IMG/VR virus record: IMGVR_UViG_3300021387_000700
Direction: 5' to 3' (one strand)
DNA from: a virus
Length of the DNA stretch: 64,000 bases
Shown in pieces: positions 1 to 46,971 of this stretch. Positions within the stretch are counted from its first letter, which is position 1. Each line of letters starts with the position of its first letter. Position numbers and translations under genes: made by a program. Below the pieces are notes generated by a model. It searched no databases, was not told the DNA's origin, and worked only from the letters and a program-made list of their open reading frames with translations.

Positions 1-159
1 CAATCCAAACAAGTCAGCAATCCCGTTCATGCCATAGCCAAAACCATTACCGAACCCACCAAAGCCTCCAAAGCCACCGATGGGAATAGAGAATGGAATG
101 TTACCAAAGCCGCCGTTGTTGTTGCCCTGATTGTCAGGGAGTTGATAAATTTCTGCCAT
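1..159 (-). CDS. glycine-rich small protein, N-terminal part (3' end runs off the window)
   Basis: Minus-strand ATG at 157-159. Reads MAEIYQLPDNQGNNNGGFGNIPFSIPIGGFGGFGGFGNGFGYGMNGIADLFGL. Too short for the ORF track. A -7 box lies at 229-236. Confidence 0.4.
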   Translation of the reverse strand, partial: MAEIYQLPDNQGNNNGGFGNIPFSIPIGGFGGFGGFGNGFGYGMNGIADLFGL

Positions 160-228
160 TGTTATTTTCCTTTCTTTTCTTTGTTAAACTTGTTGTTAAT
201 TCAAACCGTGTTGTAACGTTACACGGTG

Positions 229-236
229 CAAATTTA
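229..236 (-). promoter_or_regulatory. Bacteroidota-type -7 box TAAATTTG (extended TAAATTTGCACCGTG)
   Basis: Lies about 70 nt upstream of ATG 159 and is followed by a 6-bp hairpin, ccgtgt 206-211 / acacgg 221-226. The extended sequence nearly matches the box at 57359-57366. Confidence 0.4.
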
Positions 237-240
237 CATC

Positions 241-282
241 GTAAGAAAAGAAAGACAAAGCGGGACTTACATAAGTCCGCTT
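241..282 (-). terminator. rho-independent terminator after the RT gene
   Basis: Hairpin aagcgggactt / aagtccgctt (258-282, one bulge, 4-nt loop). On the minus strand it is followed by TTGTCTTTCTTTTCTT. Confidence 0.6.
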
Positions 283-346
283 ATATAATATAACGCATTG
301 ATAGTCAACGTGTTATATAATCAAAACCACCAAAACAAAAATTTTT

Positions 347-1624
347 TTATGGATTATCCGATATAAAAGGCTGTGTATCAACGGGTATCTCCATGCCAGC
401 CAGCTCAAAATTTATCGGGTCTTTCATGTAATACACCTTTGGATAATCGTCAACACAGCCCGTCCGTTTCGTGTTTCTCAAAAGATGGATGCTTTCGTAA
501 TGGCCTTTAACGTAAATTTTCGACCATATTTCGGGGGAAATCATGCCTATAAGCTTGCGACGTATGTGGTACGTATCATATTGCCGCATAACACCAAGGT
601 AGCTGTTTATGCTTTGTATGTTATGCACCAGCTTCTTATGCGATGTGGAAAAATTGTTTAGGCGGTATATGGCATCGTAGGCGTTTCTTACGGTACGCAT
701 ACCGACGTATGTGCGATATGGCTTAACAACCGCACCTATAAACGCCACACCCTTTGTATAGTGCTGGAAATAGAATTTGTCGGGATGCAGGTAAACATGC
801 AGGTAAAGGCTCAAGAAACGCCGTATCTTTTCCATGTCCTTGAGCATTTTCTGTCTTTCCTCTTCAGTTTCGCAAACAGCCATGAAATACCCGTCGTCCA
901 CATACCGACCGTGATATTTGTACCCAAGCTTTTCTATGAAAACATCAAGCCAATGCAAAAGGAAATTTGCATTATGCTGGCTCGGCAGATTACCTATTGG
1001 CAATCCAAGACCTGCACCGTTTGTAAATAATGATTTGTTCTTTGGTAATTGCCTCCATAATTCATCGGGGCTATGCCTGCGGCAGTCCTTTTCGGGCTCA
1101 TGCAGCATAACCACCTCACTAAGCCAAAGAATATCCTCCTTATCCTCGCCGAAATAGTTGTCTTTGATGAACTGCAAGAGCATCTTGTTAAGCAGATGCA
1201 CATCAATAGACATAAAAAATCCCTGCAAGTCAAATTTGGCTATCCAAACATCTTTCGTGTAACCCTCGCTACATTCGTACATATCCTTTTCCAATTGCGC
1301 CACACCGTATAGTACGCCCTTACCTTTGCGGCAGTTGAATGTTCTATCTGTGAACAGCTTCTCGAGCAAAGGCTCTACGCGCATGGCGATATAGTGATGT
1401 ACGATTCTATCGCGAAATCCCGCAGCGAACACCTCCCGCAGTTTCGGTTTCGTAACCACAAAGGCGATGCTTGTTGATGGTCGGTAAGTTCGGGCGTTTA
1501 TCTCATCTGCCAATCTAAGCAAGTCCCGCTGATAATCGGGGAAATACTTTATATAAGACGGTGATGATGCCTTGTGAATCTTACAAATTTGGAATGCCTC
1601 AAATAAGTATTCATCCCTTACCAT
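347..1624 (-). CDS. DGR reverse transcriptase
   Basis: 425 aa. Carries the DGR-type motif PIGNLPSQ and the catalytic box GRYVDDGYF. Lies 92 nt downstream of the TR on the same strand. Confidence 0.93.
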   Translation of the reverse strand: MVRDEYLFEAFQICKIHKASSPSYIKYFPDYQRDLLRLADEINARTYRPSTSIAFVVTKPKLREVFAAGFRDRIVHHYIAMRVEPLLEKLFTDRTFNCRKGKGVLYGVAQLEKDMYECSEGYTKDVWIAKFDLQGFFMSIDVHLLNKMLLQFIKDNYFGEDKEDILWLSEVVMLHEPEKDCRRHSPDELWRQLPKNKSLFTNGAGLGLPIGNLPSQHNANFLLHWLDVFIEKLGYKYHGRYVDDGYFMAVCETEEERQKMLKDMEKIRRFLSLYLHVYLHPDKFYFQHYTKGVAFIGAVVKPYRTYVGMRTVRNAYDAIYRLNNFSTSHKKLVHNIQSINSYLGVMRQYDTYHIRRKLIGMISPEIWSKIYVKGHYESIHLLRNTKRTGCVDDYPKVYYMKDPINFELAGMEIPVDTQPFISDNP

Positions 1625-1715
1625 AGCACAAAAATATATTCCGTTATATACCGTCTATTATACCATTCCAATATTGGAGCGCAAACTTTATTTATTGTCT
1701 TGTGTATTCTATCAG

Positions 1716-1819
1716 ATGCGGACACGGGGCGAACTAAGTTCTCATTCGTCTTGTTGTTGTTGTTGAAGTTGCCATTGTTGAAATTCAGATTCCAAGCATT
1801 CGTGGCAGAGTTCTCCGTA
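1716..1819 (-). repeat. DGR template repeat (TR)
   Basis: 104 bp, 95/104 identical to 2567-2670. All 9 mismatches fall where the TR coding strand has A. Rich in AAC/AAT codons (..NLNFNNGNFNNNNKTNEN..). Confidence 0.93.
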
Positions 1820-2066
1820 AAACACGTCCATTTTCTTATTCTTAACTCCTTCATCAGTACCATTGCTGCCGACGACGCGAGAACAACAATCGCGGCAATG
1901 TTTCGGAAAGCGTGATGATGCCCAACAAGAGAGGCCACATTCAATCCTTGTACTGAACGCTGGGAGTGGGACGCCCATTTGAAAGAAAAACACATTGCTC
2001 CCGCCAAAATAAGGCTAAAGAGCCCCCGATGTGAATCTCTACTATATTGAAACATGTCTTTTGTCA

Positions 2067-2423
2067 TTATTTCATAGTAGCCTTGCGCCAACCAGTCGCC
2101 TCGCGGCCTATCTCATCAAGCCTACGGGCGATATTCGCGTGGGATTTTTCGTCGATAATCTTTTTATCCTGCGATAATGCAAGCAAGAAGAACAATTGCT
2201 CTTGCACAAGGATGAAATCCCTGCCAAGCACACGGACACGCTCCTCGGAATTTGGCGGGCAAAGATTAGCCTCAACGATTTTCATACTAAGCTGTAGTGT
2301 CAAATCCTCGATGCGGCGGGCTATCGTTGCACGGTATTCCGCTTTAATCTTCTTTGTAACGCCAAACACGTATTTCGCGAGTTCAAACGTATCTTTGTAT
2401 ATCTTTGTATCTCTTGCAAGCAT
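2067..2423 (-). CDS. avd: Avd-like accessory variability determinant (four-helix-bundle family)
   Basis: 118 aa, helical and basic. Lies between the VR-bearing target gene and the TR, the canonical DGR position. Confidence 0.75.
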   Translation of the reverse strand: MLARDTKIYKDTFELAKYVFGVTKKIKAEYRATIARRIEDLTLQLSMKIVEANLCPPNSEERVRVLGRDFILVQEQLFFLLALSQDKKIIDEKSHANIARRLDEIGREATGWRKATMK

Positions 2424-2503
2424 TTCTCGTAGAACGTTGTTGTTGACCTTGTTATTTTGTTATAATTTGCGAAGTTGCCATTAGTGAAATCCCCAGCCCT
2501 ATA

Positions 2504-2534
2504 CCCCGATACCGTCGTTAAGACGATAAAGGGG
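2504..2534 (-). other. hairpin about 32 nt downstream of the VR 3' end
   Basis: Minus strand reads CCCC-TT-TATCGTC-TTAAC-GACGGTA-TC-GGGG: a 7-bp stem with one G.U pair plus an outer 4-bp GC clamp. Confidence 0.4.
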
Positions 2535-2558
2535 ATAAAGGACTAAAGAGATAAATGG

Positions 2559-3305
2559 TTAATAAAATGCGGACACGGGGCGAACTAAGGTCTCATTCGT
2601 CTTGCCGTTGTAGCTGAAGTAGCCATTGGTGAAATTCAGATGCCAAGCATTCGTGGCAGAGTACTCCGTAGAAGACCATCCCCAAGACGAACCGACTGGA
2701 ATTGCAGTACCGCTGATTGCAGCCATGACGAAGTTGATTTCGCGAACGTGCGCCCAAATCATAGCCATCTCGCCAAGTGAAGGCAACCACCAGCGACCAG
2801 CACCCATATTACCGTCGGCAGAATCGACATTGCTTGGGTGATACTCGTTACAATACTTTGCGGCAGGCGCGTTTGCACCGAGCGTTGTCAGAATGGTATT
2901 CGTCTTTGCGCGGCCATCGAAATCTGCAATTGCTGCGCGGCGGTCGCTGATGGCGGTAGTGCCACCCGTAACGTTAGATGTAGCCCATGCCTTTGTTGCT
3001 TGGTCTTTCGCAACAATAAGCGTGCGCCCGTTCTCGATGATACCCGCACCAACGGCGATGCTGGCGATGCTGCTTTCCAATGCACGGTCGGCAGGCCAAA
3101 AACGTGTGTATGAATCCGCGTTTGTAACCACCATAACGTTTCCGATGGTAGGCAGTACGCTTTGCAGCTTTTTTGCGAAGTTGGCGTAGGAGTCGCTACC
3201 CATAAGCTCGTTGCTGGAGTTAAGGATAGGCACGCGAGCACCCGATGCAGCAGCCGTAGTGTTGGCATTGTGCAGGGCTTTAAGAGCATTTTGAATTGTT
3301 CCCAT
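2559..3305 (-). CDS. DGR target protein, tail-fibre/receptor-binding candidate with a DUF1566/C-type-lectin-like C-terminus
   Basis: 248 aa. The C-terminal region reads GRWWLPSLGEM...GWSSTEYSATNAWHLNFTNGYFSYNGKTNETLVRPVSAFY. The last 34 codons form the VR. Confidence 0.85.
   Translation of the reverse strand: MGTIQNALKALHNANTTAAASGARVPILNSSNELMGSDSYANFAKKLQSVLPTIGNVMVVTNADSYTRFWPADRALESSIASIAVGAGIIENGRTLIVAKDQATKAWATSNVTGGTTAISDRRAAIADFDGRAKTNTILTTLGANAPAAKYCNEYHPSNVDSADGNMGAGRWWLPSLGEMAMIWAHVREINFVMAAISGTAIPVGSSWGWSSTEYSATNAWHLNFTNGYFSYNGKTNETLVRPVSAFY
2567..2670 (-). repeat. DGR variable repeat (VR)
   Basis: Gap-free alignment to TR 1716-1819. Differs only at plus-strand positions 2590, 2605, 2606, 2612, 2614, 2621, 2629, 2642 and 2663, all opposite TR adenines. 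Confidence 0.93.
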
Positions 3306-3352
3306 AAAATAATACTTTTAATTGTTTTTTTTAAATAAAGTGTATAAAACTA

Positions 3353-3360
3353 CAAATTTA
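3353..3360 (-). promoter_or_regulatory. -7 box TAAATTTG upstream of the DGR target gene
   Basis: Minus-strand TAAATTTG 48 nt upstream of ATG 3305, in an 80-nt AT-rich spacer. Confidence 0.4.
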
Positions 3361-3384
3361 CATTCTTCGTTTCTTTCGAGAGTT

Positions 3385-3714
3385 TTAACCCGCTATCTTT
3401 ACCCATGTGGAAAGGCTGTTTGAACCGTATGTCACGATTTCGCCATTGTACGTGACATTCTCGCTGTTGTATGTAACGATATGGTTTGGCGTGCCTACGA
3501 TGGATGCGGTGCTTATGAAAGTCTCCTTTGCTACCGTGATAAGCGAGTTTTGTGCATACGTAGCCGTTGGCGAAAGCGACTCTACCGAACCAAGAATCTT
3601 GATACGGTTGGTCTCTACGGTCTTACTTAGGTTGGAAACGAGCGTTTTTACACGCGCCCATACCCATCCCAAGCCTGCACCGTCGAGTTTCTTGTCGTCC
3701 GTCTGTACTGCCAT
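3385..3714 (-). CDS. small fibre-module protein (paralogous N-terminus)
   Basis: 109 aa. The N-terminus MAVQTDDKKLDGAGLG is shared with the ORF at 3739-4422. The C-terminus carries VTYNSENVTYNGEIVTY repeats. Confidence 0.6.
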   Translation of the reverse strand: MAVQTDDKKLDGAGLGWVWARVKTLVSNLSKTVETNRIKILGSVESLSPTATYAQNSLITVAKETFISTASIVGTPNHIVTYNSENVTYNGEIVTYGSNSLSTWVKIAG

Positions 3715-3738
3715 AACACTTGTTTATACGGTAGTGTA

Positions 3739-4422
3739 TTATGTTAATGAGCAGATGCTTTCAATCTCGGCCTGCGAAAGCGTTTCCACATCATCCTTGG
3801 AGGCATATCCGCTCAAGTCGATGAATCCTTGGTACACGTCGAACTTGTAAACGGCTGGCGTGCTGCCCTCTGCGGGTGATGATTCGATAACATAGACGTT
3901 AGTTCCCTTTGGATAGGTCTTGGTAACGCCCTGCTCATACTCCTCGAAACGGTTGTCGATAGTGAATCCGTCGCTCATGTTCCACATCCATCCAAGGTTA
4001 GACGAAGATGGCGTCGGGAGGTTGGCGAACGCAAGAGAGCCCTTTGGCTTGATGTATGCCTGCAACTTGGCGTCGATGGCATTGTTCACATCATTGGCGG
4101 TCTGATAGCCAGCACCGTTAGCCAAGGATGCGTTATCGGTTGGGACGGGGATATTAACGCTCTTGTCAGAAACGGTAAGTGCCGTGCCGTTGACCTTTAC
4201 GGTCTCGATAACGTTCACCTGCGCACCCGAAGCGATTGCATCCAGCTTTGATTTCAAAGTAGATGTGAAATTCTCGTCGGTATGCACATACGATGCGTCC
4301 TTAACTACGTTATCATCGTTAGTAAGGTCGCTGGTCTTGGTTGGTACAATGGATTTGATGATACTCCAAAGTATTCCCAAACCCGCACCGTCAAGCTTTT
4401 TGTCGTCTGTTTGTACTGCCAT
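3739..4422 (-). CDS. tail-fibre/receptor-binding candidate (paralogous N-terminus)
   Basis: 227 aa. Has the same N-terminal 16-aa motif as the ORF at 3385-3714. Lies in the fibre module. Confidence 0.6.
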   Translation of the reverse strand: MAVQTDDKKLDGAGLGILWSIIKSIVPTKTSDLTNDDNVVKDASYVHTDENFTSTLKSKLDAIASGAQVNVIETVKVNGTALTVSDKSVNIPVPTDNASLANGAGYQTANDVNNAIDAKLQAYIKPKGSLAFANLPTPSSSNLGWMWNMSDGFTIDNRFEEYEQGVTKTYPKGTNVYVIESSPAEGSTPAVYKFDVYQGFIDLSGYASKDDVETLSQAEIESICSLT

Positions 4423-4498
4423 AATCTTAAAACGTTTTAAATGATTAATAAAAGAAGAAAATTAACTCTATATAGAAAACTGATGATTCCCTACATTC

Positions 4499-4705
4499 CT
4501 ATCTGCAAATCATACGTATCTCAAATTCGGTCAACGTTTCGTTATTATCATCAACCTCCTGCTCCAATTCGTTGATTTGCTGGACGTGCTGTGGTGTCAT
4601 AACACCCTTTTCAACCAAGGAGGCATCGGGGTAGATGTCTTTTTCCTCTACCTTATCCAAGTCCTCTTTCACTTGGTCGCCGTATTTGTTCAACTTGTAT
4701 GCCAT
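4499..4705 (-). CDS. small acidic hypothetical protein
   Basis: I chose the internal ATG (MAYKLNKYGDQ...), which avoids overlapping the gene at 4728-4997. The ORF track extends this ORF to 4840. Confidence 0.45.
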   Translation of the reverse strand: MAYKLNKYGDQVKEDLDKVEEKDIYPDASLVEKGVMTPQHVQQINELEQEVDDNNETLTEFEIRMICR

Positions 4706-4727
4706 AAGCGATATATTTTTAAAGTTG

Positions 4728-4997
4728 TTAGATGTTCCTTGGCTTGCGCATAACCATAACGCACTCCCCGTCGATAAGCATAATCTCACCCTCATTAACA
4801 AGCAGATATTCCCATTTGCCCTGCGATGTTGCACAAACAAGCGAGAAAGCCGCCGTAACGCCTTTGTTGTTCTTTGGGCTTATAGTTACACCTACGGCTG
4901 GATTTAACGCGCCTACGGCTACGGAAACGGGCTTATTTGCCAATATAGCCTCCGTTTCTATTCCTTGGTTATCCCTTGGTGTTACGGATGCAGCCAT
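4728..4997 (-). CDS. hypothetical structural-module protein
   Basis: Start chosen at MAASVTP, preceded by AAAGGAGGCGGTGAT. The track's start at 5084 would overlap the upstream gene by 19 nt. Confidence 0.4.
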   Translation of the reverse strand: MAASVTPRDNQGIETEAILANKPVSVAVGALNPAVGVTISPKNNKGVTAAFSLVCATSQGKWEYLLVNEGEIMLIDGECVMVMRKPRNI

Positions 4998-5065
4998 ATC
5001 ACCGCCTCCTTTGTGGGTGACGGTGACACGCTGACAGCCGTGTATTCCGCAGCAAGAGCCTTGTG

Positions 5066-5440
5066 TTACGATGTCACTACGCATAACAGCTGCTTTTGAA
5101 CCTCGGTACGTAACCCATCATCGAAATCATCATCGGGTACGTATGCGATTGTGGTAATCCAATACTCGCCCGTTCCCATGAATCCCGTATCTACCGTAAA
5201 GAGATAGTTCTCGTTTTCATCAAGAATCATCTCGGCCTTTGATATGGTGACGCTTTTCTTGGTGTTCTTGATAACAACCTTGAAATCATCGTCTGCCATA
5301 GAAAAGCCCTCGGACTGAATATCCAATGTGAATTTCAGCTCCGTGCCTTGGTAGATGGTACGGCGGACATTCTCCTGCTGTTGTTGCTGGCTGTTGTTGT
5401 CGCCACCGCTAACTTGTGTATTGCTATTCTCGTCTGCCAT
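5066..5440 (-). CDS. hypothetical structural-module protein
   Basis: 124 aa with a Q-rich N-terminus. A -7 box lies 28 nt upstream. Confidence 0.55.
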   Translation of the reverse strand: MADENSNTQVSGGDNNSQQQQQENVRRTIYQGTELKFTLDIQSEGFSMADDDFKVVIKNTKKSVTISKAEMILDENENYLFTVDTGFMGTGEYWITTIAYVPDDDFDDGLRTEVQKQLLCVVTS

Positions 5441-5467
5441 AATGCTAAAATATTAATTTTCTGCGTG

Positions 5468-5475
5468 CAAAGATA
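5468..5475 (-). promoter_or_regulatory. -7 box TATCTTTG(CA)
   Basis: Minus-strand TATCTTTGCAC 28 nt upstream of ATG 5440. Confidence 0.5.
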
Positions 5476-5514
5476 AACAATGTTTTTGAATATACAAAGG
5501 ACAATGCGAAAGAT

Positions 5515-5982
5515 TTATTGTCTTTTCACGATTTTGTGCGAATATTCGTTGCGGATGAAGGATTTTTTGAACAGATACTTAACCCAAGCGAATCTTTTGC
5601 GCTCATAGTTGTACGACAAATCATCTTCATGTAGATACGCCTCCTGCTCCGTGCTGATATTGTAATATGCCAGCCTTGAGTCAAAGCCGCAGAATGGAAT
5701 GCGGATAATCCACTCCAGCACGTAGATAAGATAGAACGATACTGGAATAACAAAGCACCACCACCATGATATTACATCTGCCAATGATAGTGATACGGCG
5801 ATAATCGCGGCAACGACCATCACCTCAAGCTGCTGCTCAAGGTGGGTCGTTTCGTGGCGTTTATCTTTGTCCGTAAACTTGCTTGCATCACTCCTTACAA
5901 ATACCAAAGGCCAAATTGTGATAGCCTTGAAACCCTTAAACGGGATTATTTTGTTGAATACCAGTCTTGCTTTCATAGTCAA
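5515..5982 (-). CDS. membrane protein with an HExxH motif (putative metallopeptidase-like)
   Basis: 155 aa. RHETTHLEQQ is followed by two hydrophobic helices (VMVVAAIIAVSLSL, WWWCFVIPVSFYLIYVLEWII). Confidence 0.35.
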   Translation of the reverse strand: MTMKARLVFNKIIPFKGFKAITIWPLVFVRSDASKFTDKDKRHETTHLEQQLEVMVVAAIIAVSLSLADVISWWWCFVIPVSFYLIYVLEWIIRIPFCGFDSRLAYYNISTEQEAYLHEDDLSYNYERKRFAWVKYLFKKSFIRNEYSHKIVKRQ

Positions 5983-5988
5983 TATAAA

Positions 5989-8160
5989 TTAAACCCATGT
6001 ATTGTCGCAACCCTCAAGTGCAAACCAGCCCGCGCCTACGTTTGTATTGGTCGGAGAATAGTTATTACCCACGTTGATAAATTCGCGAACCTCGCCGCCA
6101 CTCATACCAAGCCATCCAGCAATGAAAGCTATATCTACACCATGATAGTCGTTGGAGCAAATGACCGACACTTTCTTTGATGCCATACCCACAAGCCTAT
6201 ATGAATAGCCATCGTAGGAATTGTTTATGATTACCAAGTCGACGGGGAATCCGCTTGCATCACCGCTTGTACCGCTATAAAGGTCTATGTCATAGTATGT
6301 ACGACCGTTGCTTGTATGCGAGGTCATTGTTTTGCTTGCGTAGTAACTTTGCGTAAGTCCCTCTGTATAATACTTGATTGTCGCTTGGCTCACTACTGCC
6401 GTGTTAAGTCCGCGATGTCCGAAACTTCCGCGACACCAAATATCGGACGACAAGAAACGTCCACTACGTCCGTTCACTTGACCTTGGTGTATGATGTCAA
6501 CCGTTTCAAAGGCAACGCCGCCATAAGTACCAGTATTTGCACAAATACGACCAATCTTGACACCATTTGAATCGACACAATCGAGTGAATTAAAAGAACC
6601 CGTAACGCCTACTATTTGACCTCTCAAGAATGCACTATTCATGTACACCTCACCCGTTTCACCGTTTATAGCAACATTCGGGATAAAGTTGTACCGCCCC
6701 GTAGAGCTATTGTAGTGGTTTGTGTTAGGGTAGTCTTTATCGAATTGCGTATATGCACCCGAACTGCTTCCGTTCACCGTTCCGTTTTGTGAAATCAACC
6801 AATCCTCACTTATAATGAACGACCCAAGATTTGCGAACGAACTAAACAAAGCCGCCGTTATGATGTACTTGAAATCGTTCGTCATGATGTCCCAATTCGC
6901 GCTACTTGTCGATGGTGTACCCATTTGGCTTTCCGTGTAATTGCCGTTTGTTTCGGGATTGAACACAAAATAGTTGCTTCCGTACTTGAAATACGGTGCT
7001 TGTGCATCATTGACGATATACGTTTTAACGGTATCGCCCGTCCATGTTCCTACATAATAGAAGAAACGGCCTATACGCCCGCGAGAACCATCTTGTCCAT
7101 CTTGTCCATCCTTTACGTGCGAAACGCAAGTACCAATGATTGAACTCGCGCTAACGCTTGTGCAACGGAATTCCTCCGTATGCCTTATGCCTTTATCCGT
7201 AGATGTACCCGTCACAATGAAATAGTCACCGACGCGACAAGCCGTAAAATCTGAATCACCGTCAATCTTACCCCAAGGTTCGGAACGCCCTATCGTTCCC
7301 CATGTATTCCACGAGGAATCGGAATACCTCCCACTCCTTTCAAGTGTCAATTTCAAGCCATACCCTTCTGCTCCGTCTTTTCCATCTTTACCGTCTTTGC
7401 CGTTTGTGCCGTTAGTTCCGTTAGTTCCGTCCGTAACGATGTTCACGGTTTCTTTATCAACTACGGTATTGTTCACGTAAAGGAAGAATGTGACGTAGTT
7501 TGTGAAGTTAGTGCCTGCCGTAAGACCGCCACTTGGATAGTTGGCTACGCTGCCGCCATCTGCGCTATACTTAATGGTGGCCTCCGACGGATTGCTGGAG
7601 GTTGTACCCGTAGCAACATCAAGTTTCGAGCTGCCACAAGTGATAACGTTTGGCGTGTAAGTACCATCTTTCTTGTGAGTAATGGCGTTAGCCGATGGGA
7701 CGAGGTTATAGATAGCACCGCCTTTCATACTCACAACGGCGATTGACAAAGCTATCGTGCCGTATGTGGCGTGCATTATTTCCACCTCCAGCGTTTCACG
7801 TTTGCTAACGGCTACACCGCTATCGTAGTGTATGCGAATCCATTGCTTTGTGCTGATGGTTTGGAATGTGGTCGTGAGCGATGTGCTGCCCGTACCGCTG
7901 CCGCTTGTTTCCAAGGTAAGCGAAGCGTTTGTAGGCTTAGATGTGTAGCGAATCTGACACAATGCGGTAACATCTTCAACGCCATAGAAAGCCGCTACAT
8001 GCGAGTATATGTTAAACGCCGCAGCGGTTTTCATGTCGTTATCGCAGGCAACGCTATCCATCTCGTTAGACAAATCTACCGAGAATGCGTTTGTGCCGTT
8101 AGTTCCGTCCGTAACAGTCGTTACATGAAATGTGTTTCCTATACTTCTACGACTTGACAT
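5989..8160 (-). CDS. tail fibre protein with short collagen-like G-X-Y runs
   Basis: 723 aa. Contains GTNGTNGTNGKDGKDGKDGAEG and DGQDGQDGSRG. Has an internal 20-28 nt direct repeat (7418-7437 / 8096-8115). Confidence 0.6.
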   Translation of the reverse strand: MSSRRSIGNTFHVTTVTDGTNGTNAFSVDLSNEMDSVACDNDMKTAAAFNIYSHVAAFYGVEDVTALCQIRYTSKPTNASLTLETSGSGTGSTSLTTTFQTISTKQWIRIHYDSGVAVSKRETLEVEIMHATYGTIALSIAVVSMKGGAIYNLVPSANAITHKKDGTYTPNVITCGSSKLDVATGTTSSNPSEATIKYSADGGSVANYPSGGLTAGTNFTNYVTFFLYVNNTVVDKETVNIVTDGTNGTNGTNGKDGKDGKDGAEGYGLKLTLERSGRYSDSSWNTWGTIGRSEPWGKIDGDSDFTACRVGDYFIVTGTSTDKGIRHTEEFRCTSVSASSIIGTCVSHVKDGQDGQDGSRGRIGRFFYYVGTWTGDTVKTYIVNDAQAPYFKYGSNYFVFNPETNGNYTESQMGTPSTSSANWDIMTNDFKYIITAALFSSFANLGSFIISEDWLISQNGTVNGSSSGAYTQFDKDYPNTNHYNSSTGRYNFIPNVAINGETGEVYMNSAFLRGQIVGVTGSFNSLDCVDSNGVKIGRICANTGTYGGVAFETVDIIHQGQVNGRSGRFLSSDIWCRGSFGHRGLNTAVVSQATIKYYTEGLTQSYYASKTMTSHTSNGRTYYDIDLYSGTSGDASGFPVDLVIINNSYDGYSYRLVGMASKKVSVICSNDYHGVDIAFIAGWLGMSGGEVREFINVGNNYSPTNTNVGAGWFALEGCDNTWV

Positions 8161-8187
8161 AATCTTTATATTTCTAATTTATAAAAG

Positions 8188-8195
8188 CAAAGTTA
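8188..8195 (-). promoter_or_regulatory. -7 box TAACTTTG
   Basis: Minus-strand TAACTTTGC 28 nt upstream of ATG 8160. Confidence 0.4.
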
Positions 8196-8210
8196 TGCTT
8201 ACACACCCGT

Positions 8211-9335
8211 CTAAGATGTGTAAGCAATAACGATACCCGTAATATTCTTTCCGTAATCGTTGACGGTGGCAAAGTTGATTTTCAACGTACCCTTACCGCC
8301 CGACATAGCAAGTGGGCGCATACCATCAGAGCCTCTATCGGGAATATCGGGTAATCCCGAAGCGGTAATCTCGTTCGCATTTCCATCAAGGAGCTTTACC
8401 TTAATGCTGTTATAGGTCGGGTTCGTAGTACCACCAAGAACAGCAGCGTCCTCGCGCAAGCCTACCCAAATGGAGAATGTTACAGATTCATCCTTTCGCA
8501 GCGATGCGGCATTTCCGTTAGCACCGTTATATTGGATATACAGAAATTCGGGGTCTTGCATATCATCAATGCCAGCGTATGCCGTATAGCGAGTTTGGCC
8601 GCCCGAAGTGAACACGCATTTAACCGTTGCATGGTCTACGATGCTACCCTCGCTAACTTGGAAAGCGTTTGCGTATGTATTACCATCAATGGTCTTACTT
8701 TGGCCGCTTGTACCCGTAGAGGCATCGTTAAGATACCATTGTGTAGTACACTCTACGTCTCCACCGTTGGAATCATACAGCTTTCCGTACATGGTGATAA
8801 CCTGCCCTTTCTCCGTAATATCAGACACGCCGTTTACGAAGTTGATGATACCAAGGAATCCGTTACCTTGAATCTCGGTGATACGGATTTGTGCGGCACA
8901 CTCGAAAGGAACGGCACTACCGCCAATGCTGCAAGAGCCCTTGAACGTAATCATATCCACATTGACGTTATCGGAACTTGCAAGGTTGCCCATAATCTTC
9001 AATGCTGGCATGTTCAAGGTTTGACTACCGTAGGTAACGGCCTTCGTGGTTTTCATAAACAGACCGCTTGGGCTTGTTGAAATACCCGTTTCCTCGTTGA
9101 AGGTGATAACCTGCCCCTCGTACATCCATTGGTACGTGCTTTGCGGAACGACAAGCGATGTACCCGACAAAAGCGTAAGGTAAATCGTAGGTCTGTTAGC
9201 GTTCACAGTCCAATCGGGAACGGCAGAAGAGCCAGTCCATGCCTGCGAAAGCGACTTGTCTGATGCAAGATTGCCGTGCAGGGTTGTACCATCATCAAGT
9301 GCGGTAACAAAAAATCTATTACTAATTGAGCTCAT
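8211..9335 (-). CDS. tail/baseplate-associated structural protein
   Basis: 374 aa with beta-rich composition. The N-terminus MSSISNRFFVTALDDGT resembles that of the ORF at 5989-8160. Confidence 0.45.
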   Translation of the reverse strand: MSSISNRFFVTALDDGTTLHGNLASDKSLSQAWTGSSAVPDWTVNANRPTIYLTLLSGTSLVVPQSTYQWMYEGQVITFNEETGISTSPSGLFMKTTKAVTYGSQTLNMPALKIMGNLASSDNVNVDMITFKGSCSIGGSAVPFECAAQIRITEIQGNGFLGIINFVNGVSDITEKGQVITMYGKLYDSNGGDVECTTQWYLNDASTGTSGQSKTIDGNTYANAFQVSEGSIVDHATVKCVFTSGGQTRYTAYAGIDDMQDPEFLYIQYNGANGNAASLRKDESVTFSIWVGLREDAAVLGGTTNPTYNSIKVKLLDGNANEITASGLPDIPDRGSDGMRPLAMSGGKGTLKINFATVNDYGKNITGIVIAYTS

Positions 9336-9338
9336 AAA

Positions 9339-9833
9339 TTATTCCTCCTCTTGATTTTGTTGTTGGGTTTCCGTTTCTTCTTCGCTGGTTTCGTTATTCT
9401 CGTCTTGCTGAGTGCCGCCGCCAAGAATGTCCTCCACATTACCTACCTCGTTTTCCTCGATAGTTTCCGTTTCGGCGTTTTCGGGCGTTTCGTCGTTCTG
9501 CTCGGTTTGTTCATCTACGGTTTCGGTCTGCGATTCCTGCTCTACATCCTGCTCTTCTTGATGCTGCTCCTGCTGATTGTTGTTGTTAGGTTCAAGCCCC
9601 TCATATCCCATTTGGTAGTTGTTTTCTGCAATAAGGGCATCTGCCTCCGTACCCGTAATCTTAACAACACCCTGCAAACCGTCGATATACTCGTCGGGAG
9701 TGAATCGCACGCGGCGCAAATCGTTATTGTCAAGAATCCAATTCATGTCCTTTGTGCGGTAGCGTTCAAGGATAAGGCCGCTGCGTTGCGCGATATTCTC
9801 AACGACCTTGTAAAAAGTGATGTTCATTCCCAT
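9339..9833 (-). CDS. protein with an extremely acidic Q/E/T-rich C-terminal tail
   Basis: 164 aa. The last ~80 aa read NNNQQEQHQEEQDVEQESQTETVDEQTEQ...QQQNQEEE. Confidence 0.5.
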   Translation of the reverse strand: MGMNITFYKVVENIAQRSGLILERYRTKDMNWILDNNDLRRVRFTPDEYIDGLQGVVKITGTEADALIAENNYQMGYEGLEPNNNNQQEQHQEEQDVEQESQTETVDEQTEQNDETPENAETETIEENEVGNVEDILGGGTQQDENNETSEEETETQQQNQEEE

Positions 9834-9860
9834 AATTCAAATCCTTTCTTTTATATTGTC

Positions 9861-10997
9861 TTAAATAAATCTGCCATACACATTCTCGCTGTTGTATGTA
9901 ACAACCTCACCGTCGTATATAATCGGCTCATAAGCACCGATGATATACACAATAGGATAGATAAGCACATTGCCAGTCGACGATTGCATCGCAGAGCTGT
10001 CTAATGTGATTCGCTCACCCCATCCTCTGTCGGTTTCCGTGCTTTGTGTGCTGTTTCTTGTCTTCCAATTGAAACGCATGTGCGCCTGCTTTTTAGCATC
10101 GCTAACGACAGCACCTTTCACATTCACTACGGTACTGAAAGTCATTGTATTAACGTTAGAACGGTAAGCACCGCCATTTTCGCTAAGTACGTTCGTTTCA
10201 ATATCGGGTATGCGCCACACGATAGAACGGTACACCTTGCTCGGATATAGTGTATTACCCGATTGCACGGCACGTAACACTATATTTATCTCCTCGCCAT
10301 AAAGTGCATCAACTACCAAATTTCGTGTTCCTTGGCCGCTTACATAGAACGGCATGGTTTCGACGAGCACCTCGTTATTCCCGTCGACGGCATACCACTT
10401 AAATGTGATGTCTGTTGAAACATCAACACCGCCGCGATATGCAACGGCCTGCAAGGTAAACTGAGATTCGTCCATCGTTAGCGGATTGTAAGGAATAGAA
10501 TCCTCGCAAAGCACATCAATGGTGGGGCAGTCAAACTCCGCATCCTTTGATGTAGTAAGGGTAAGAATCTGCTCCATAGCACCGATGCGCCCCGAATCAC
10601 GCGGGTCGATGTATTGTGCCACACATCGAATCTGAACGGCATGGTCGTAGCCGACATTCTTTCTAACAACAAGCGTATTGCCGCTAAGATAATAATCCGC
10701 AGACGTGCTTGTAGTCATAATGTGGCTTTCAACATAAGCCGTGTTACGCCATTCATTAACGTACCAATCGGTGCTGTAGAAAGCAAGCTCATAGGAACGG
10801 TTCGCCTCAGAGTCAACACCCGTTATAGACGGAGTGATGATAAGCGGCGTGCGCTGGCGGTTTGGTTGCCAGTCGTTAGAGTTATCATAGTACCATTGCT
10901 CGGTAACGCCGTTAGGTGTCAGATTGAACACCATGTCAAGCGGTTTCAGCTCGGTAGTGATAACTGCGGGTTGTGATACATTTAATCTTCTTCCCAT
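9861..10997 (-). CDS. tail/baseplate structural protein
   Basis: 378 aa, immediately downstream of the Tal-like gene. The C-terminus YDGEVVTYNSENV shares a 23-nt exact repeat with 3455-3477. Confidence 0.5.
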   Translation of the reverse strand: MGRRLNVSQPAVITTELKPLDMVFNLTPNGVTEQWYYDNSNDWQPNRQRTPLIITPSITGVDSEANRSYELAFYSTDWYVNEWRNTAYVESHIMTTSTSADYYLSGNTLVVRKNVGYDHAVQIRCVAQYIDPRDSGRIGAMEQILTLTTSKDAEFDCPTIDVLCEDSIPYNPLTMDESQFTLQAVAYRGGVDVSTDITFKWYAVDGNNEVLVETMPFYVSGQGTRNLVVDALYGEEINIVLRAVQSGNTLYPSKVYRSIVWRIPDIETNVLSENGGAYRSNVNTMTFSTVVNVKGAVVSDAKKQAHMRFNWKTRNSTQSTETDRGWGERITLDSSAMQSSTGNVLIYPIVYIIGAYEPIIYDGEVVTYNSENVYGRFI

Positions 10998-11000
10998 AAT

Positions 11001-14000
11001 TTATGCTACAATTTGATTATCAACAATTCTTGTAAGTTTACCATCATCAACGGTTACATGCAATGTGAATATGGCCTTATTCTGATACGACCAATCTACG
11101 GGCATATCCGCGTTGGTAAGATGCAGGGTCTTTTCGCCCGAATGGAGCATACCCCATGTTACATCTGCCTCTGTTTGGCCGCTTTCGCTTGCACGCTCCC
11201 ATACAAAGAACTCATCGTCGATGTCGGCTGTAATATCCACATTTCCATAGAACACATGCGGGGTAATAACCGTATCAACAGCACCGCGACGGAAAGAATA
11301 CCCGTTGCTTGAAACAAATTCAATCGTAAGGTTATCGTTACCGTCCACCAAACGCCAATACGGGCTGTTCCATGCAGGCTCGTAATACACATCAACACCG
11401 CCTTGTCTTACGGGCTGGTGCTGGAGGCATTGCCAACGACCACCGTTATGCCGTACTTCATGTATTTCGTACTGCTGTGTTTCCTCGTTGTATTCATTAT
11501 ATAAATAGATACCCGCGCCAACGGTAGGCGTAGTGACCTGCGCTCCGTCCACCCACTCACCGCAGAATACGATAACGGGTACGGGCAATCCTTCGCGTGT
11601 TACCTTGATAAAGTTTCCAACGACAACACCTTGCGCATAAAGCCAATCTGTATGCTCACCAACCTCATTCAAAACCTCCCGCACATCGGGATAGTTCTTT
11701 ACAAATTCGGGAAGTTCTCCGATGGTAACGCCATAGTTTCCGTTCTTTAGGATAGGCGCATCAACACCCGTATATTTGATTACACGGCCTTCTGTTGTGC
11801 TTATCATAAACATGCGCTGGCGACGGATAATGCTTGCCTTTATGCTTTCGTAGTCGGGGTCTGATGGATTAGAATAATCAATACAGCCCCAGCGTGCGAT
11901 AGTCATAAGCTCGCAAGGCTCAAAGTTCCTTTGTGCTGGAACTTGCTGGTCGCCGTAAAGAACGACGCGAATCTGATTAACGCCGAGCTCATCCTCCGTG
12001 CCTAACGTTGTGTTATGTGTTGCCACGACGCGCATCCACGATGTATAGTATTTGTTCGCACCATCCTGCTCAACGGACGAGCTTTCGTAATCGCTAACGC
12101 CAGCCTGCTTTGCAGCAAGTGTGTTGATGATACCCTTGATAACGTTACCGTACATCTGCCCCGTTATATAGCCGTCATACTTTTCCTTCAAAGAAAGTTT
12201 ATAGTACGTCACACCGTCGATTATCTCTTTTTCAACGTAGTCGATTTGGTCGTTATCGCTGAATATGGTATCGCCCTCCTGCGCCTGCAAACGGTTGATA
12301 ATCAATTCTACAACCTCGAGGAAAGAACGGACGCGCAATGATTCAAGCTCGGCATTTCCCAGCTTGTCTATGCGCCATCCTTTACCACCGTATAGGCCGC
12401 TAACGAAATCGGGGCTTTGTATAGTATCATGGAAGAATACCATGCCGATAGAATCCAATCCCTGCTGGAATGTGATGCGGCCTTGGCAGACATCATCAAC
12501 TATGCGCGAAAGCTTTGATTTCACGTCACCAAGAATAGTGTCGCCGTAGTATTTTTCGAGGCCGTTCACTTGTGCGCGTAAGCGGTTCAATCCATCTACG
12601 GTCTGCCCTATCTCGTTGACAACTATTTCTATATCATCGGTAAGCGTAATATCATACTGCGGCAAAACCTTGTCACCGTATTTCACGGTAAGCTGTTTCA
12701 CGTACAGCATCTTTGTTACGCCAGCATATTGGAAACGCACAATGGCATTGGGCTTTATCTGTGCAAGCTCGTATGTATGCGTAGCCAAGAAATACTCATC
12801 GAATTTCAGCGGGTAGTCGAAATAGTGCTCGTTGTTTGCTGCAAGGTATTCGGCCATAGCAGTATCAAGCTCTCCCTCTGCCGTGCTGATATACGACAAA
12901 GGCAAAGATATGCCGATAATAGCGAACTTATCGCCCGATGCAGGCTTTTGGTACACGTTAGGCATAAGCACGCCGTATGTCGTGTTTTCCTTCTTGCACA
13001 ATACCGTTATCTGCCCTGCGGAGCTATCGGGGTATTTCTCGCCATCGCGAACATGGCCATCATCCTCTTCCAAATTCGGATTATGGATAACGGGGTCAAA
13101 CGTACCGTCGGGCTTGTAGAAATTCTTTTTATAGTCCTCCCAATCCACTTGAACGGGGAACGTGCATCCAATACAAGCACCAGTCCGCATGTATATAGAC
13201 ATCGCCTGCGTAACTGCGGCACTTGCATACAAGTCAAATGAAAGCTGCGGCAAAGTAACCTTGAAATAGCTTTGTACGTAGTTTCCGTCGTCGTCCATAG
13301 TGTCGTCCCAATCATCGGATGGCACTACATGGCCGCGCTGCAATACGGTGTACTCGAAAGCAACGGTATCGCTGACATATTTCACGTAGATAAACGTGTT
13401 ATCCTTATAGAAGGAATACTCAACGATATAGCTGCCTGCCGTGTCTTTGAACGTGTACTTTTCCGTGCTTGCGTGCGTAAGGATGGTGTTTGGAACGGCT
13501 GTAAGGATTGCGGCCTCTTTCTCGTTCTTAGCATCTCCAGCAAGCTCGTTTACCGTAGCAACAAAGTTATTCCATCGTATATAGTCAACACCTTTCTCGC
13601 CGCCGCCATACGCCTCCACGTTTACAAGGGATGCGTTTCCTAACTGCGGCTTAATTTTTTCAAATTCATGCGACTCATACGATGGCTCGCCAGCCTTTAG
13701 CGGATTGGGATAGCTACCGTCCGCATCAATGTAGTCGATAATCTCCGTGTTGGGATTATAGCCCGATGCGTAAGGATTGACTTTCTTGTTTACCGTTTCC
13801 GTATATATGCTCGGCATGAGGTGGCTGCGGGTGAACGGGTGTTTAATCAAGCGTACCCTTTGACCGCCTACAATACCGTCGTATATAGGGTAGGAGTTAG
13901 CGGCATTGGCATCATTGTTGATTGTGTAATCCCAGCTTTGGTCGCCATTCCAAATAATCTGCGGATAGCCGTATGGTATATTATCCTCGCTGCCGTAGCC

Positions 14001-44227: not shown

Positions 44228-44501
44228 GCATGAAATCTATAACAGCACTATCCATCAGCGCACCTACGCCCACCAAAGTCGTATGTATGCCACCAACTAA
44301 TGACACCATCTGCCGAAGGCGCAGATATTCGGCGTTAGCCGACGGAACTTTTTCAGAACCCTCCAATTCCACCTCCTTCGCTTTCATGGCATCATGCAAA
44401 CGCCGTAATAAACCGCCTACCATGCCACGAATACGCTCCATGTCTTGATTAGCTATACCAAGCAAAGCACCAGCCTGCAACTCTAATATATCCTTTGCCA
44501 T
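44178..44501 (-). CDS. first gene of the leftward early operon, hypothetical
   Basis: Start at MAKDILELQ. A -7 box lies about 53 nt upstream. Confidence 0.45.
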   Translation of the reverse strand: MAKDILELQAGALLGIANQDMERIRGMVGGLLRRLHDAMKAKEVELEGSEKVPSANAEYLRLRQMVSLVGGIHTTLVGVGALMDSAVIDFMRGCDNDGGDESAAAEI

Positions 44502-44553
44502 ATACAATAACTTTCTTTTATCATATAAATAAATTAAACTATAAATTCGGGTG

Positions 44554-44561
44554 CAAATATA
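44554..44561 (-). promoter_or_regulatory. -7 box TATATTTG(CACCCG), leftward early promoter
   Basis: Minus-strand TATATTTGCACCCGAAT at the left edge of the gene-free region. Confidence 0.5.
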
Positions 44562-45084
44562 CACACTTTATTTTAAATATACCTAATAATAAGGTAACTT
44601 TAACAAAAGATTAACTATTATAAAGGTTTCTTTATATATATAAGATACACTATTTATAATATAGATAACCTATATTAATAAGTATATACTATATATAGGG
44701 ATATATCTGCATACGCACACACGCGAAAATTTTTCTTTTTTCAAAAATTTCTTTTTTTAAAAAATGGATTATGCGCACCACACCGATTTTGGGCGCAAAA
44801 ATAGCCCCCACCCCCTATAAAACCCCGTAACTCGCTGAAAATCAAGCAGTTATAAATATTATACGTTCGTTTTTTATTTATAACTTTGCACCCGCTTATA
44901 TTACACGACGGTACGACTAAATAATCCCCACAAAGATACGCAAACAAAGGGCAAAAAGTATAATTTTCGGGCTGCAAAGATAGTATATATTTTAGTCTTG
45001 AAAATAGGCTGTTTTTAGGTAGTTTTATTTATAAGATAACTATATATATAAAGTATATATATTTAAGGGCTACAAAGTGCAGGA

Positions 45085-45300
45085 AAATAGGAAATAATAT
45101 AATATAAATAATCATGTTTTAATATAGGTTTATAGGCAAAAAGAAAAGCATACAAGAAAAAGAAAAATAAAATATATAAATCTATATAATAATATAATAT
45201 AATAAATAAGAATAGAAAAAGAAATAAAAGAAAAAGAAAAGATAATAAGTGTATCAAAAACAATTAATAATATTATGATGCTGGCAATAACAAAGAATAA
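45085..45300 (+). repeat. A-rich, nearly C-free low-complexity tract (DNA-unwinding-element-like)
   Basis: Typical sequence is aaagaaaagcatacaagaaaaagaaaaataaaatatataaa...aaagaaaaagaaaagataataag. I counted about 4 C in 120 nt. Confidence 0.6.
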
Positions 45301-45369
45301 TTGTAAATAATACACTATCAAATAAGGGCTATAAATAAAGGGTGAAAAATGTTTCACGCTTATTTAGAA

Positions 45370-45385
45370 TTGTGTGCGGACACAA
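45370..45385. promoter_or_regulatory. palindromic operator-like site TTGTGT-GCGG-ACACAA
   Basis: Perfect 6-bp arms with a 4-nt spacer. Confidence 0.5.
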
Positions 45386-45575
45386 ATAGAAAAGTATATA
45401 AAAAGTAATATTGTAATATATACACATAAAATGCTTGAAAACCTTATATATAAATGGCTCTAACATTTATTATATATTTCTGTTAATAAGTATATATTTT
45501 GCAGAAGTCCTTTATTTATGGGTGTTTCACGCAATTAGTGCAATATTTTATAAAAGTCTAAATAATAAAAGGCCT

Positions 45576-45591
45576 CTGTGTGCGTACACAA
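45576..45591. promoter_or_regulatory. palindromic operator-like site cTGTGT-GCGT-ACACAa
   Basis: 5-bp perfect arms with the same architecture. Confidence 0.45.
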
Positions 45592-46068
45592 ATCGCTTAA
45601 AATTTTGGGGCTGGTATAAGTACCCACAAAGAGCATGAAAACGCAACAGCGGGAAAATTGGGGTCTTTTGTCTTGAAAAAGTATATAAATAAAATATATT
45701 CATATATATGCTAAAAGCCCTTTATACAAAGGTATTTGCAAGGATTTAGTATATTATATTCTGTAAATATTCTTTATTGTTAATAAATATTTAACTCCTT
45801 GATTATCAATAAGTTACGTTTTAAACGTAACCCTCGCAAAAATTCACCTTATAAATGTAATAAATACACTATTAAAATACCCTATCATTTTATATATAAG
45901 TGTATATAGTACACCGAAAATATAAATACCAGCGTTTTTGTATCTTTATAAAATGATATACTTTGCACATGCTACAAAGGTACAAAGAATATATAAATAT
46001 AAGATATAAGGAAATAAGGTCGGCAGGGTGCAAAAGTACGGGAAAAGCGGGTAAAATAGGGTCTATAA

Positions 46069-46084
46069 TTGTGTCCGTACACAA
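46069..46084. promoter_or_regulatory. palindromic operator-like site TTGTGT-CCGT-ACACAA
   Basis: Perfect 6-bp arms with a 4-nt spacer. Confidence 0.5.
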
Positions 46085-46436
46085 AACGGCTTTTATTGTG
46101 CTGGGTATATAATTACTATATTTGCAGGCTTTTAACGCTGTGTCGGGCTTTAAAACATGCTTAAAACGAATTATTTGCATTTTTGCTATATATACGCGCA
46201 TATTCATATTATAAATAAATAATGCAATAATCCAGCATTTTTGCACCCGCTTATAAAATAGGCTTTTAACATTTTAAGTTATTGATTTTCAAGCAGTTAC
46301 AAACTTTTGTAATTAGTTTTCATCATAAAAAGTGTTTCATTTGTTAATTTAATAGGCTTTTCATGCTTATATAATAAATAAAGGTTAAAAAAATAACTTT
46401 TTAGGCTTAAAAGTTTGGTATATAAAAATATATTTG

Positions 46437-46444
46437 TACCTTTG
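46437..46444 (+). promoter_or_regulatory. -7 box TACCTTTG(CACC)
   Basis: Plus strand, 530 nt upstream of the first rightward gene. Followed by GC-richer sequence with paired segments. Confidence 0.4.
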
Positions 46445-46700
46445 CACCAGCAAAACGATAGAACGGCAGGCGGAAGCCACATAGCGGACAGGGGTCGTTT
46501 GCGGGCGAGGAAAAAGCCTCGACCTATCTTTGCAAGTTTGGGCAATATATACGCAGTAAGTTGACAGCCCGAAGACTACAAAGGGAAATAGGACGAGCAC
46601 ATTATCCCGAAAACTTGCATTTACTTGTTAGCGTGCAAAGTTTTGACCCAGTCACCTAATAAGGAATTAAAAAGAATAGTTAGGGCTTTAAATAGTAACA
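46445..46700 (+). ncRNA. candidate structured leader or small RNA
   Basis: Long-range pairing gcaaaacga 46450-58 / tcgtttgc 46495-502. Hairpin cgagg-aaaaag-cctcg at 46506-21. No ORF with a credible start. Confidence 0.25.
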
Positions 46701-46971
46701 TTGATATTTAAAACAAAGGGCTGTTAATTGCATGATGTTTCAATGAATTGCAAACAAGCAAATAACTCACTATTTTGTATTTTTGTGCAGGGTATTTAGC
46801 ACTGGGAACAGAATCTATTTTGCACATACATAAATACTTGCAAATAGGCAGATTAATTGCACCCGCAGGAAATTGACAACTAATAGGGCAAAATGAAAAA
46901 CCGAATTTTTGCAGCCTTCAAATATAATCCACTTTATTTATTAACGTATTAATTTTATAGGAGGTTTTATT

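Follow-up and report, generated by a model that had tools for sequence, protein, structure and literature searches.

Does the locus at positions 347 to 3305 of the virus record IMGVR_UViG_3300021387_000700 constitute a complete diversity-generating retroelement (DGR), and does its target protein determine the host range of the phage that carries it? Both had been proposed in an original prediction, which described a phage-borne DGR of known class at the distal end of a fibre gene module and named the diversified protein as the likely host-range determinant. For an answer the whole stretch of 64,000 nucleotides, called the window in the following, was analysed together with related loci. With high confidence we regard the locus as a complete, Avd-dependent DGR with a target of the DUF1566/C-type-lectin (CLec2) class, carried by a tailed gut phage. 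All components are present and intact, the two repeats differ specifically at adenines and the reverse transcriptase (RT) falls among the DGR RTs, so that this part of the prediction was borne out.

The elements of the cassette follow each other on the minus strand in the order target, avd, template repeat (TR) and RT, and the listing of open reading frames (ORFs) agreed with the predicted coordinates, which are collected in Table 1. In an ungapped comparison the TR and the variable repeat (VR) were identical at 95 of 104 positions. All nine mismatches (plus-strand T at 1739, 1754, 1755, 1761, 1763, 1770, 1778, 1791, and 1812), which lie exactly where they had been predicted, fell on adenines of the TR coding strand. 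For a TR with 35 adenines among its 104 bases this corresponds to a hypergeometric P of 2.6e-5. Mismatches at non-adenine positions, which would speak against adenine-specific mutagenesis, were not found at any of the 69 sites concerned. The TR reads TENSATNAWNLNFNNGNFNNNNKTNENLVRPVSA and comprises 13 AAY codons. In eight of them the VR is altered, the encoded asparagine being converted to Y, H, T, Y, S, Y, G, and T. These exchanges as well as the predicted numbers of adenines and AAY codons were reproduced by our codon table. Up to 13 AAY codons and seven other adenine-containing codons are randomisable; the theoretical repertoire amounts to 4^35 = 1.2e21 DNA sequences and ~5e19 proteins, or to 2e15 for the AAY codons alone. 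As predicted, the VR takes up the final 34 full codons of the target. The distance to the stop codon had to be corrected from 6 to 5 nt: Between the repeat end at 2567 and the stop codon (2561-2559) there are two codons (F and Y), the first of which shares base 2567 with the repeat. A scan of both strands of the window for matches at the 69 non-adenine positions revealed no third copy of the repeat.

The RT possesses the DGR-type sequence PIGNLPSQ (IGxxxSQ, motif 4) at residues 209-216 and the catalytic box YVDD at residues 241-244, both of which had been recognized before, and its match to the Pfam model RVT_1 lies above the curated cutoff. Among the PDB sequences the best match was bRT of phage BPP-1 (8ub7, 7e-13), followed by a group II RT (1e-6) and retron-type enzymes (~3e-4). 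BLASTP aligned the enzyme with bRT over 312 residues with 24% identity (E 6e-17). The equivalents of R74, I181, and Q187 of bRT, which published structural work locates at the site of the template and the incoming nucleotide, are kept. Two NCBIfam models of other RT families remained far below their cutoffs, namely the group II RT/maturase model (5.6e-18) with 65 bits at a cutoff of 300 and the retron model with 25 bits at a cutoff of 235. In the phage collection, the closest RTs were those of DGR-bearing Bacteroides phages. Judged by best matches, model scores and motifs, the enzyme thus groups with the DGR RTs and not with retron or group II RTs, a placement that the prediction had named as decisive. 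An assignment as defence RT was rejected, as the models for defence-associated RTs (DRT) in PADLOC matched weakly and by generic RT similarity only. As a side observation, the enzyme carries an insertion of ~35 residues relative to bRT in front of the IGxxxSQ motif (residues ~150-200, window ~1025-1175), which holds the family-invariant motifs HEPEK and LPKNKSLFTNG.

The C-terminal part of the 248-residue target (residues 146-244) matched the Pfam family PF07603 (Lcl_C, DUF1566) with 1.5e-8 and passed the cutoff narrowly (35.3 bits at 34.9). A sequence search of the PDB gave chance-level matches only, so the fold had to be taken from a model. The AlphaFold2 (AF2) model, built from an alignment of 50 sequences, reached a mean predicted local distance difference test (pLDDT) value of 88 and a predicted template modelling (pTM) score of 0.79, the first ~50 residues being less confident. 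The top hit of this model in a Foldseek search of the PDB was the fimbrial protein BACOVA_04982 of Bacteroides ovatus (4eps, E 1.5e-5); the C-terminal domain of Legionella Lcl (8q4e, E 7.6e-4) and, with weak scores, classical C-type lectins were found as well. Among the predicted viral structures of BFVD, ~200 residues of the target aligned to the C-termini of phage proteins with 415-1417 residues, either tail-fibre proteins or uncharacterised, and to crAss-like phage proteins with DUF1566 (E down to 9e-15, template modelling (TM) scores of ~0.65). According to this high-confidence model, the target would adopt a C-type-lectin-like fold that is also found at the tips of long phage tail fibres. 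The DUF1566/C-type-lectin scaffold suspected from the C-terminal residues was in this way recovered by Pfam, by the model and by the structural matches. The VR overlaps the DUF1566/Lcl_C domain, the feature by which targets are assigned to the CLec2/DUF1566 class (category 'd'; Wu et al., 2018, PMC5758913). The second protein of the cassette was recognized as Avd by phrog_3206 ('Avd protein of DGR', 7.5e-16) in addition to the Pfam family listed in Table 1.

Related genomes provided evidence for activity. In IMG/VR two loci were detected whose RTs are 100% (L001) and 98% (L002) identical to that of the window. In these two and in two further loci of the window lineage (L161 and L162) the TR is identical to that of the window at 104 of 104 positions, and the VRs of all four are different. 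The VRs of L001 and L002 differ from the TR at 12 and 15 positions, respectively, all 27 of which are TR adenines; together with the window, 36 of 36 differences are adenine-specific. An alignment of the whole cassettes of the window and L001 showed a divergence of 13.5% in the VR, 1.4% in the rest of the target gene and 0% in the TR. Near-identical genomes hence share an invariant TR and possess a hypervariable VR, whose rate of divergence is ~10-fold that of the remaining gene. At 90% identity, the target belongs to a cluster of 172 distinct sequences. In the 15 members that were aligned, the protein is near-invariant outside the VR, and the variable columns inside it are mainly AAY-derived positions. 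The pattern extends to more distant relatives: 23 of the 24 related loci examined (RT identities 28-100%) contain a TR/VR pair with substitutions almost exclusively at TR adenines, the few other mismatches being located at the alignment ends beyond the true repeat borders. The only failure was L156, in which no TR/VR pair was detectable. Constancy of the TR together with VR differences at TR adenines is what characterises ongoing mutagenic retrohoming.

Some of the VRs also vary in length. Those of L161 (2501-3253) and L162 (2074-2823) are longer by 6 and 3 nt inside an (AAC)4 run, with the TR unchanged. The additional 3 nt were likewise observed in L003, L144, and L149/L150, and L150 and L151 share a common TR and have five and four codons, respectively, at the AAC run. 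These variants fit a slippage of the RT on AAC repeats, as has been described for other DGRs (Wu et al., 2018, PMC5758913) and discussed elsewhere (PMC12875486).

By analogy with BPP-1 and other studied DGRs, the following course of diversification is likely. A complex of RT and Avd would reverse-transcribe an RNA that comprises the TR and both flanking spacers, the structured one toward avd and the one toward the RT, with random nucleotides put in opposite the template adenines. The resulting cDNA would replace the VR in the 3'-terminal part of the target gene; a GC-rich element would set the 3' boundary, probably with the help of a downstream hairpin. The variants would be displayed on the ligand-binding face of the lectin-fold domain. 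The target most likely acts as a receptor-binding tip, and in this role its diversification would shift the host range.

Three other explanations have to be weighed against this reading. If the locus were not a DGR, an ordinary duplication would have come to lie beside a retron, a group II intron or a defence RT. The group II RT/maturase match and the weak DRT matches mentioned above might be quoted in favour of this, yet they reflect generic RT similarity far below the family cutoffs, and strictly adenine-specific mismatches in the window and in related genomes, the presence of an avd gene, a CLec-fold target with the VR at its 3' end and bRT as the best solved relative all contradict it. The tests described have already refuted this explanation, to which we assign practically no weight. 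Several findings weigh against the reading adopted here. Avd passed the Pfam cutoff by a narrow margin (41.3 bits at a cutoff of 40), stayed under the cutoff of the NCBIfam model DivGenRetAVD (5e-8) and showed no BLASTP similarity to the Avd of BPP-1. The TR and the VR are identical through the GC-rich element, and inside the repeat no difference of the kind between IMH and IMH* (initiation of mutagenic homing) is visible; a promoter for avd-TR-RT was not identified. The target is a small, stand-alone protein and not the C-terminus of a long fibre. Activity in the window genome is deduced from its relatives, and among these L130 (ena:ERZ919295 scaffold_382), whose target is 68% identical to that of the window, is without avd, TR and RT. 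In L133 (logan:ERR1302869_3784) the TR breaks off after ~24 nt; the remainder of the repeat and the RT have given way to an oppositely oriented HNH gene (NUMOD4 and HNH_3, homing-endonuclease-like). The system is dispensable, since the cassette was lost in the one case and truncated in the other. Decay of this type in relatives speaks for a second explanation, in which the DGR is no longer active in the genome of the window and the VR is the frozen product of past diversification. We consider this improbable: RT, avd and TR are intact and constrained (nonsynonymous differences per site, pN, of ~0.18 among relatives in the RT, compared with ~0.8 for synonymous ones, pS), the catalytic and adenine-mutagenesis residues of the RT are kept, and the four genomes with an identical TR all carry different VRs.

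The third explanation accepts an active DGR and assigns another role to the target, e.g., that of a decoration or adhesin for gut glycans or other surfaces, or of a protein outside the virion. It draws on the small size of the stand-alone target, in which no fibre shaft is recognisable, on the bacterial fimbrial protein as its best PDB match and on the persistence of relatives without the DGR machinery. On the other side, the gene ends a run of tail and fibre genes, its fold caps phage tail-fibre proteins of 570-1400 amino acids over ~200 residues, and in the Bacuni phages, which have the same cassette layout, host range correlates with differences in the VR (PMC8143477). We therefore rate a role apart from host range as rather unlikely, although it is the one of the three that we take most seriously. 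A receptor-binding role of the target is plausible because of the fold matches to tail-fibre ends and the tail and fibre genes upstream, and the designation as likely host-range determinant appears reasonable by analogy with Mtd of BPP-1 and with the Bacuni phages.

Table 1. Features of the DGR cassette and its surroundings in the window (strand, coordinates and the basis of each assignment).
Feature	Position	Strand	Basis or remark
DGR target, 248 aa: N-terminal domain and C-terminal DUF1566/Lcl_C C-type-lectin-like domain	2559..3305	-	ORF, Pfam, AF2, Foldseek
avd accessory gene, 118 aa	2067..2423	-	Pfam PF22296 bAvd 2.3e-10
Template repeat (TR)	1716..1819	-	35 adenines, 13 AAY codons
DGR reverse transcriptase, 425 aa	347..1624	-	Pfam RVT_1 9.7e-10; phrog_1423 'Reverse transcriptase' 2.4e-67
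Variable repeat (VR)	2567..2670	-	95/104 identity to TR, 9/9 mismatches at TR adenines
GC-rich 14-nt element CGCCCCGTGTCCGC, candidate IMH-like boundary	2569..2582	-	VR 3' end; TR copy 1718-1731
Imperfect stem-loop, candidate target-recognition hairpin/cruciform	2495..2544	-	DNA fold; ~25 nt downstream of VR end, no T-run
avd-TR spacer, probably structured 5' part of the DGR RNA	1820..2066	-	247 nt, nucleotide-level conserved islands in 7 relatives
TR-RT spacer, 91 nt, presumed counterpart of the BPP-1 'Sp' region	1625..1715	-	position only
Open frame, 149 codons, contains TR, status uncertain	1618..2067	-	translation
Terminator-like hairpin	263..278	-	69 nt after RT stop; consensus scan only
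TAAATTTG, TAnnTTTG match	3353..3360	-	48 nt upstream of target start; pattern match only

Several candidate cis elements surround the VR end. The homology of TR and VR stops 2 nt past the GC-rich 14-mer (GCAT, then divergence), which is a candidate for an IMH-like boundary by analogy with the IMH of BPP-1 (PMC5758913). A 17-mer at the end of the VR, GTTCGCCCCGTGTCCGC, codes for VRPVS and is likewise found at the VR ends of another, very abundant DGR family in more than 100 viral contigs (IMG/VR loci L007-L126). An exact scan of IMG/VR with this sequence yielded more than 120 contigs, almost all of them from that other family, and the 17-mer was rejected as a probe for relatives of the window lineage. 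By these matches, different DGR families have the DNA sequence of the GC-rich VR end in common. The fold energy of the stem-loop behind the VR was not better than that of shuffled sequence (z -0.44). Nearly all relatives possess a strong hairpin at the equivalent site, with unrelated stem sequences and no T-run following it. In these respects the hairpin is less like a terminator than like the inverted repeat of BPP-1, which promotes target recognition (summarised in PMC5758913). The interval from the VR end to the hairpin (2545-2566) contains three or four (C)TTTATC-like repeats with a spacing of ~8-10 nt, whose position is kept across relatives with differing hairpin sequences.

Between the target stop and the avd start a further segment was observed at 2457-2490 on the minus strand, a degenerate 34-nt copy of the TR/VR core, ATTTCACTAATGGCAACTTCGCAAATTATAACAA. 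Its local alignment with the TR scored 36, compared with a maximum of 27 in 500 shuffles. It is present in the window and in the near-identical L002 and absent from more distant relatives. The segment was rejected as a second VR or TR, as its differences are not adenine-specific and it lies outside any ORF and is confined to the clade of the window; it looks like the relic of an older repeat copy.

The spacer between avd and TR, which is unusually long, contains conserved blocks, which persist across relatives whose RT genes are saturated at synonymous sites. For seven relatives RNAalifold predicted 87 pairs, 34 of them with compensatory changes. In this structure, which was derived from the same alignment, 92% of the cells are paired and the covariation score is 0.358; shifting the partners by 1-3 columns reduces these values to ~42% and <0.1, respectively. 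No Rfam family matched, neither in positions 1-4000 (E<=1) nor, at the gathering thresholds, in the whole window. The spacer probably forms the 5' part of the DGR RNA with a multi-helix structure, which fits the requirement of BPP-1 for RNA upstream and downstream of the TR (PMC6182149; bioRxiv 10.1101/2023.10.23.563531). A pairing predicted between the TR 3' end and codons 4-9 of the RT showed no covariation; by analogy it might correspond to the TR:Sp primer duplex.

The same spacer and the TR are traversed by an open frame, which begins with an ATG overlapping the avd stop (TAATG) and terminates 7 nt inside the RT gene. No stop codon interrupts it outside the TR, compared with eight in each of the other two frames (dinucleotide-shuffle P 0.0005). 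Beginning at this ATG, the frame is free of stops over the whole spacer in all six lineages with a long spacer; the spacer lengths are 267, 225, 225, 234, and 243 nt, all of them multiples of three, and 247 nt in one clade. The block ATGACAAAAGA at the ATG and avd stop is invariant in all seven aligned sequences, and the end 7 nt inside the RT is shared by the window and four lineages (L003, L146, L148, and two near-identical genomes). Likewise, the Bacuni phage F2 has an annotated 'TR containing gene' that extends 4 nt into the RT gene. BPP-1 was rejected as a control, as it is uninformative because its GC-rich sequence is almost without stops in any frame. A conventional conserved protein is unlikely, because the three codon positions are affected about equally (307/282/298 differences) and pN (~0.3) is close to pS (~0.4), whereas the synonymous sites of the RT are saturated. 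The lack of protein-type constraint, together with the folding of the same stretch into a covarying RNA, led us to a tentative and rather doubtful proposal, namely that the frame is kept open for translation as such, as a ribosome relay from avd through the DGR RNA to the RT start. Such a relay would couple RT translation to the folding of the template RNA, or gate this folding. To our knowledge, such a regulatory layer has not been described for DGRs, the TR being generally stated as untranslated. Alternatively, the open frame may be a by-product of nucleotide-level constraint on the RNA.

With regard to transcription, the hairpin behind the RT is the probable end of the cassette transcription unit. 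The motif TAnnTTTG is the -7 box of Bacteroidota promoters, and besides the match upstream of the target a further one, TATTTTTG, was observed at 1629-1636 on the minus strand, 5 nt upstream of the RT start codon. If this were a promoter -7 box, the RT transcript would be nearly leaderless.

The window encodes TerL, a major-capsid-like protein, a tape measure protein of 2163 amino acids, an amidase endolysin, a primase/helicase, a methyltransferase and a serine recombinase; no tRNAs were found in its 64 kb. Related contigs are 75-85 kb in length, and the source is probably a tailed phage of ~84 kb with gut Bacteroidales as our best guess for the host. The closest isolate by TerL is Bacteroides phage C3_41T2LP with 54% identity. 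The phage is without a close sequenced isolate, as a megablast search of positions 1-12000 against 50,697 phage records found no match. RT relatives with ~45% identity occur in metagenome-assembled genomes of Alistipes, Rikenellaceae, and Paludibacteraceae from deer and sheep guts. No close prophage was found in the scan of genome contigs, and since only these ~45%-identical RTs were obtained, the host was assigned to order level only.

Directly upstream of the target, the same strand encodes two small paralogues, a protein of 723 amino acids with collagen-like repeats and two members of a PHROG 'tail protein' family, so that the target is located at the distal end of a tail and fibre-like gene run, as the prediction had stated. 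The two small genes (3385-3714 and 3739-4422, minus strand) share the N-terminus MAVQTDDKKLDGAGLG and then diverge, with a repeat at 3667-3716 and 4375-4424. Such a layout suggests alternative fibre or receptor-binding proteins that share an attachment module. At a distance from the cassette, the region 44500-47000 lies between divergent gene blocks; it is AT-rich (31% GC at 44-46 kb) and contains no ORF of at least 120 amino acids. TAnnTTTG(CA) motifs and short repeats, among them TTTGCACCCGC, occur there at high density, and a promoter/regulatory or origin function of the Bacteroidota type is probable.

The element itself leaves the knowledge of DGRs unchanged and represents a well-documented further example of a known system. 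Within an uncultured ~84-kb phage lineage it marks the protein that the phage most likely uses to track changing host surfaces; by their record names, the relatives probably stem from livestock gut samples. With their common TR, the numerous public VR variants form a convenient natural data set for mutational spectra, for length variation by codon slippage and for selection on the binding face of the lectin fold. Moreover, the structured RNA and the open TR frame offer testable starting points for understanding the coordination of DGR RNA function with RT expression in systems other than the Bordetella model.

Comparison with known systems allowed a placement of the element. BACOVA_04982 of Bacteroides ovatus (4eps), a fimbrial tip-like protein and reported DGR target, is the best structural match in the PDB and shares the DUF1566-type lectin-like C-terminal domain. 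It differs in being a bacterial pilus protein of 497 residues, and the query-normalised TM-score is only 0.46 at 16% identity. The reference for the CLec2/DUF1566 category 'd' is the DGR of Legionella pneumophila with its target LdtA (Wu et al., 2018, PMC5758913), which has in common with our element the C-terminal VR of DUF1566 type, the Avd-dependent layout and the AAY-rich TR. The Legionella DGR is chromosomal or located on an integrative element and diversifies a bacterial surface lipoprotein, whereas the element described here is phage-borne and its target has no lipoprotein signal. With the DGR of BPP-1 (mtd-avd-TR-brt) it shares the gene order, a homologous RT, adenine-specific mutagenesis, a GC-rich stretch that closes the VR, a candidate hairpin beyond it and a target within the tail-fibre module. 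In contrast, Mtd belongs to another CLec subfamily (Mtd type), the TR of BPP-1 directly abuts avd where the window has a structured spacer of 247 nt, and the RT of the window is ~100 amino acids longer, including the ~35-residue insertion described above.

The closest studied systems, and the nearest in layout, are those of the Bacuni phages F1, F2, and F4 of Bacteroides uniformis (Hedzet et al., 2021, PMC8143477). Their RTs are only 46-49% identical to that of the window and the targets 39% over the C-terminal 157 amino acids. The Bacuni phages measure ~40 kb and carry a second, remote target, whereas the phage of the window has ~84 kb and an unrelated TerL, and a second VR was not found within the 64 kb of the window. 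The spacer between avd and TR comprises 247 nt here, compared with 27 nt between avd and the TR-containing ORF in F2. These differences notwithstanding, both systems have the same order: A DUF1566 target of ~250 amino acids is followed by Avd, then by a TR embedded in a small annotated ORF reaching to the RT start, and finally by the RT. In both, the VR comprises the last ~35 codons, the target matches 4eps and the host phylum is probably the same.

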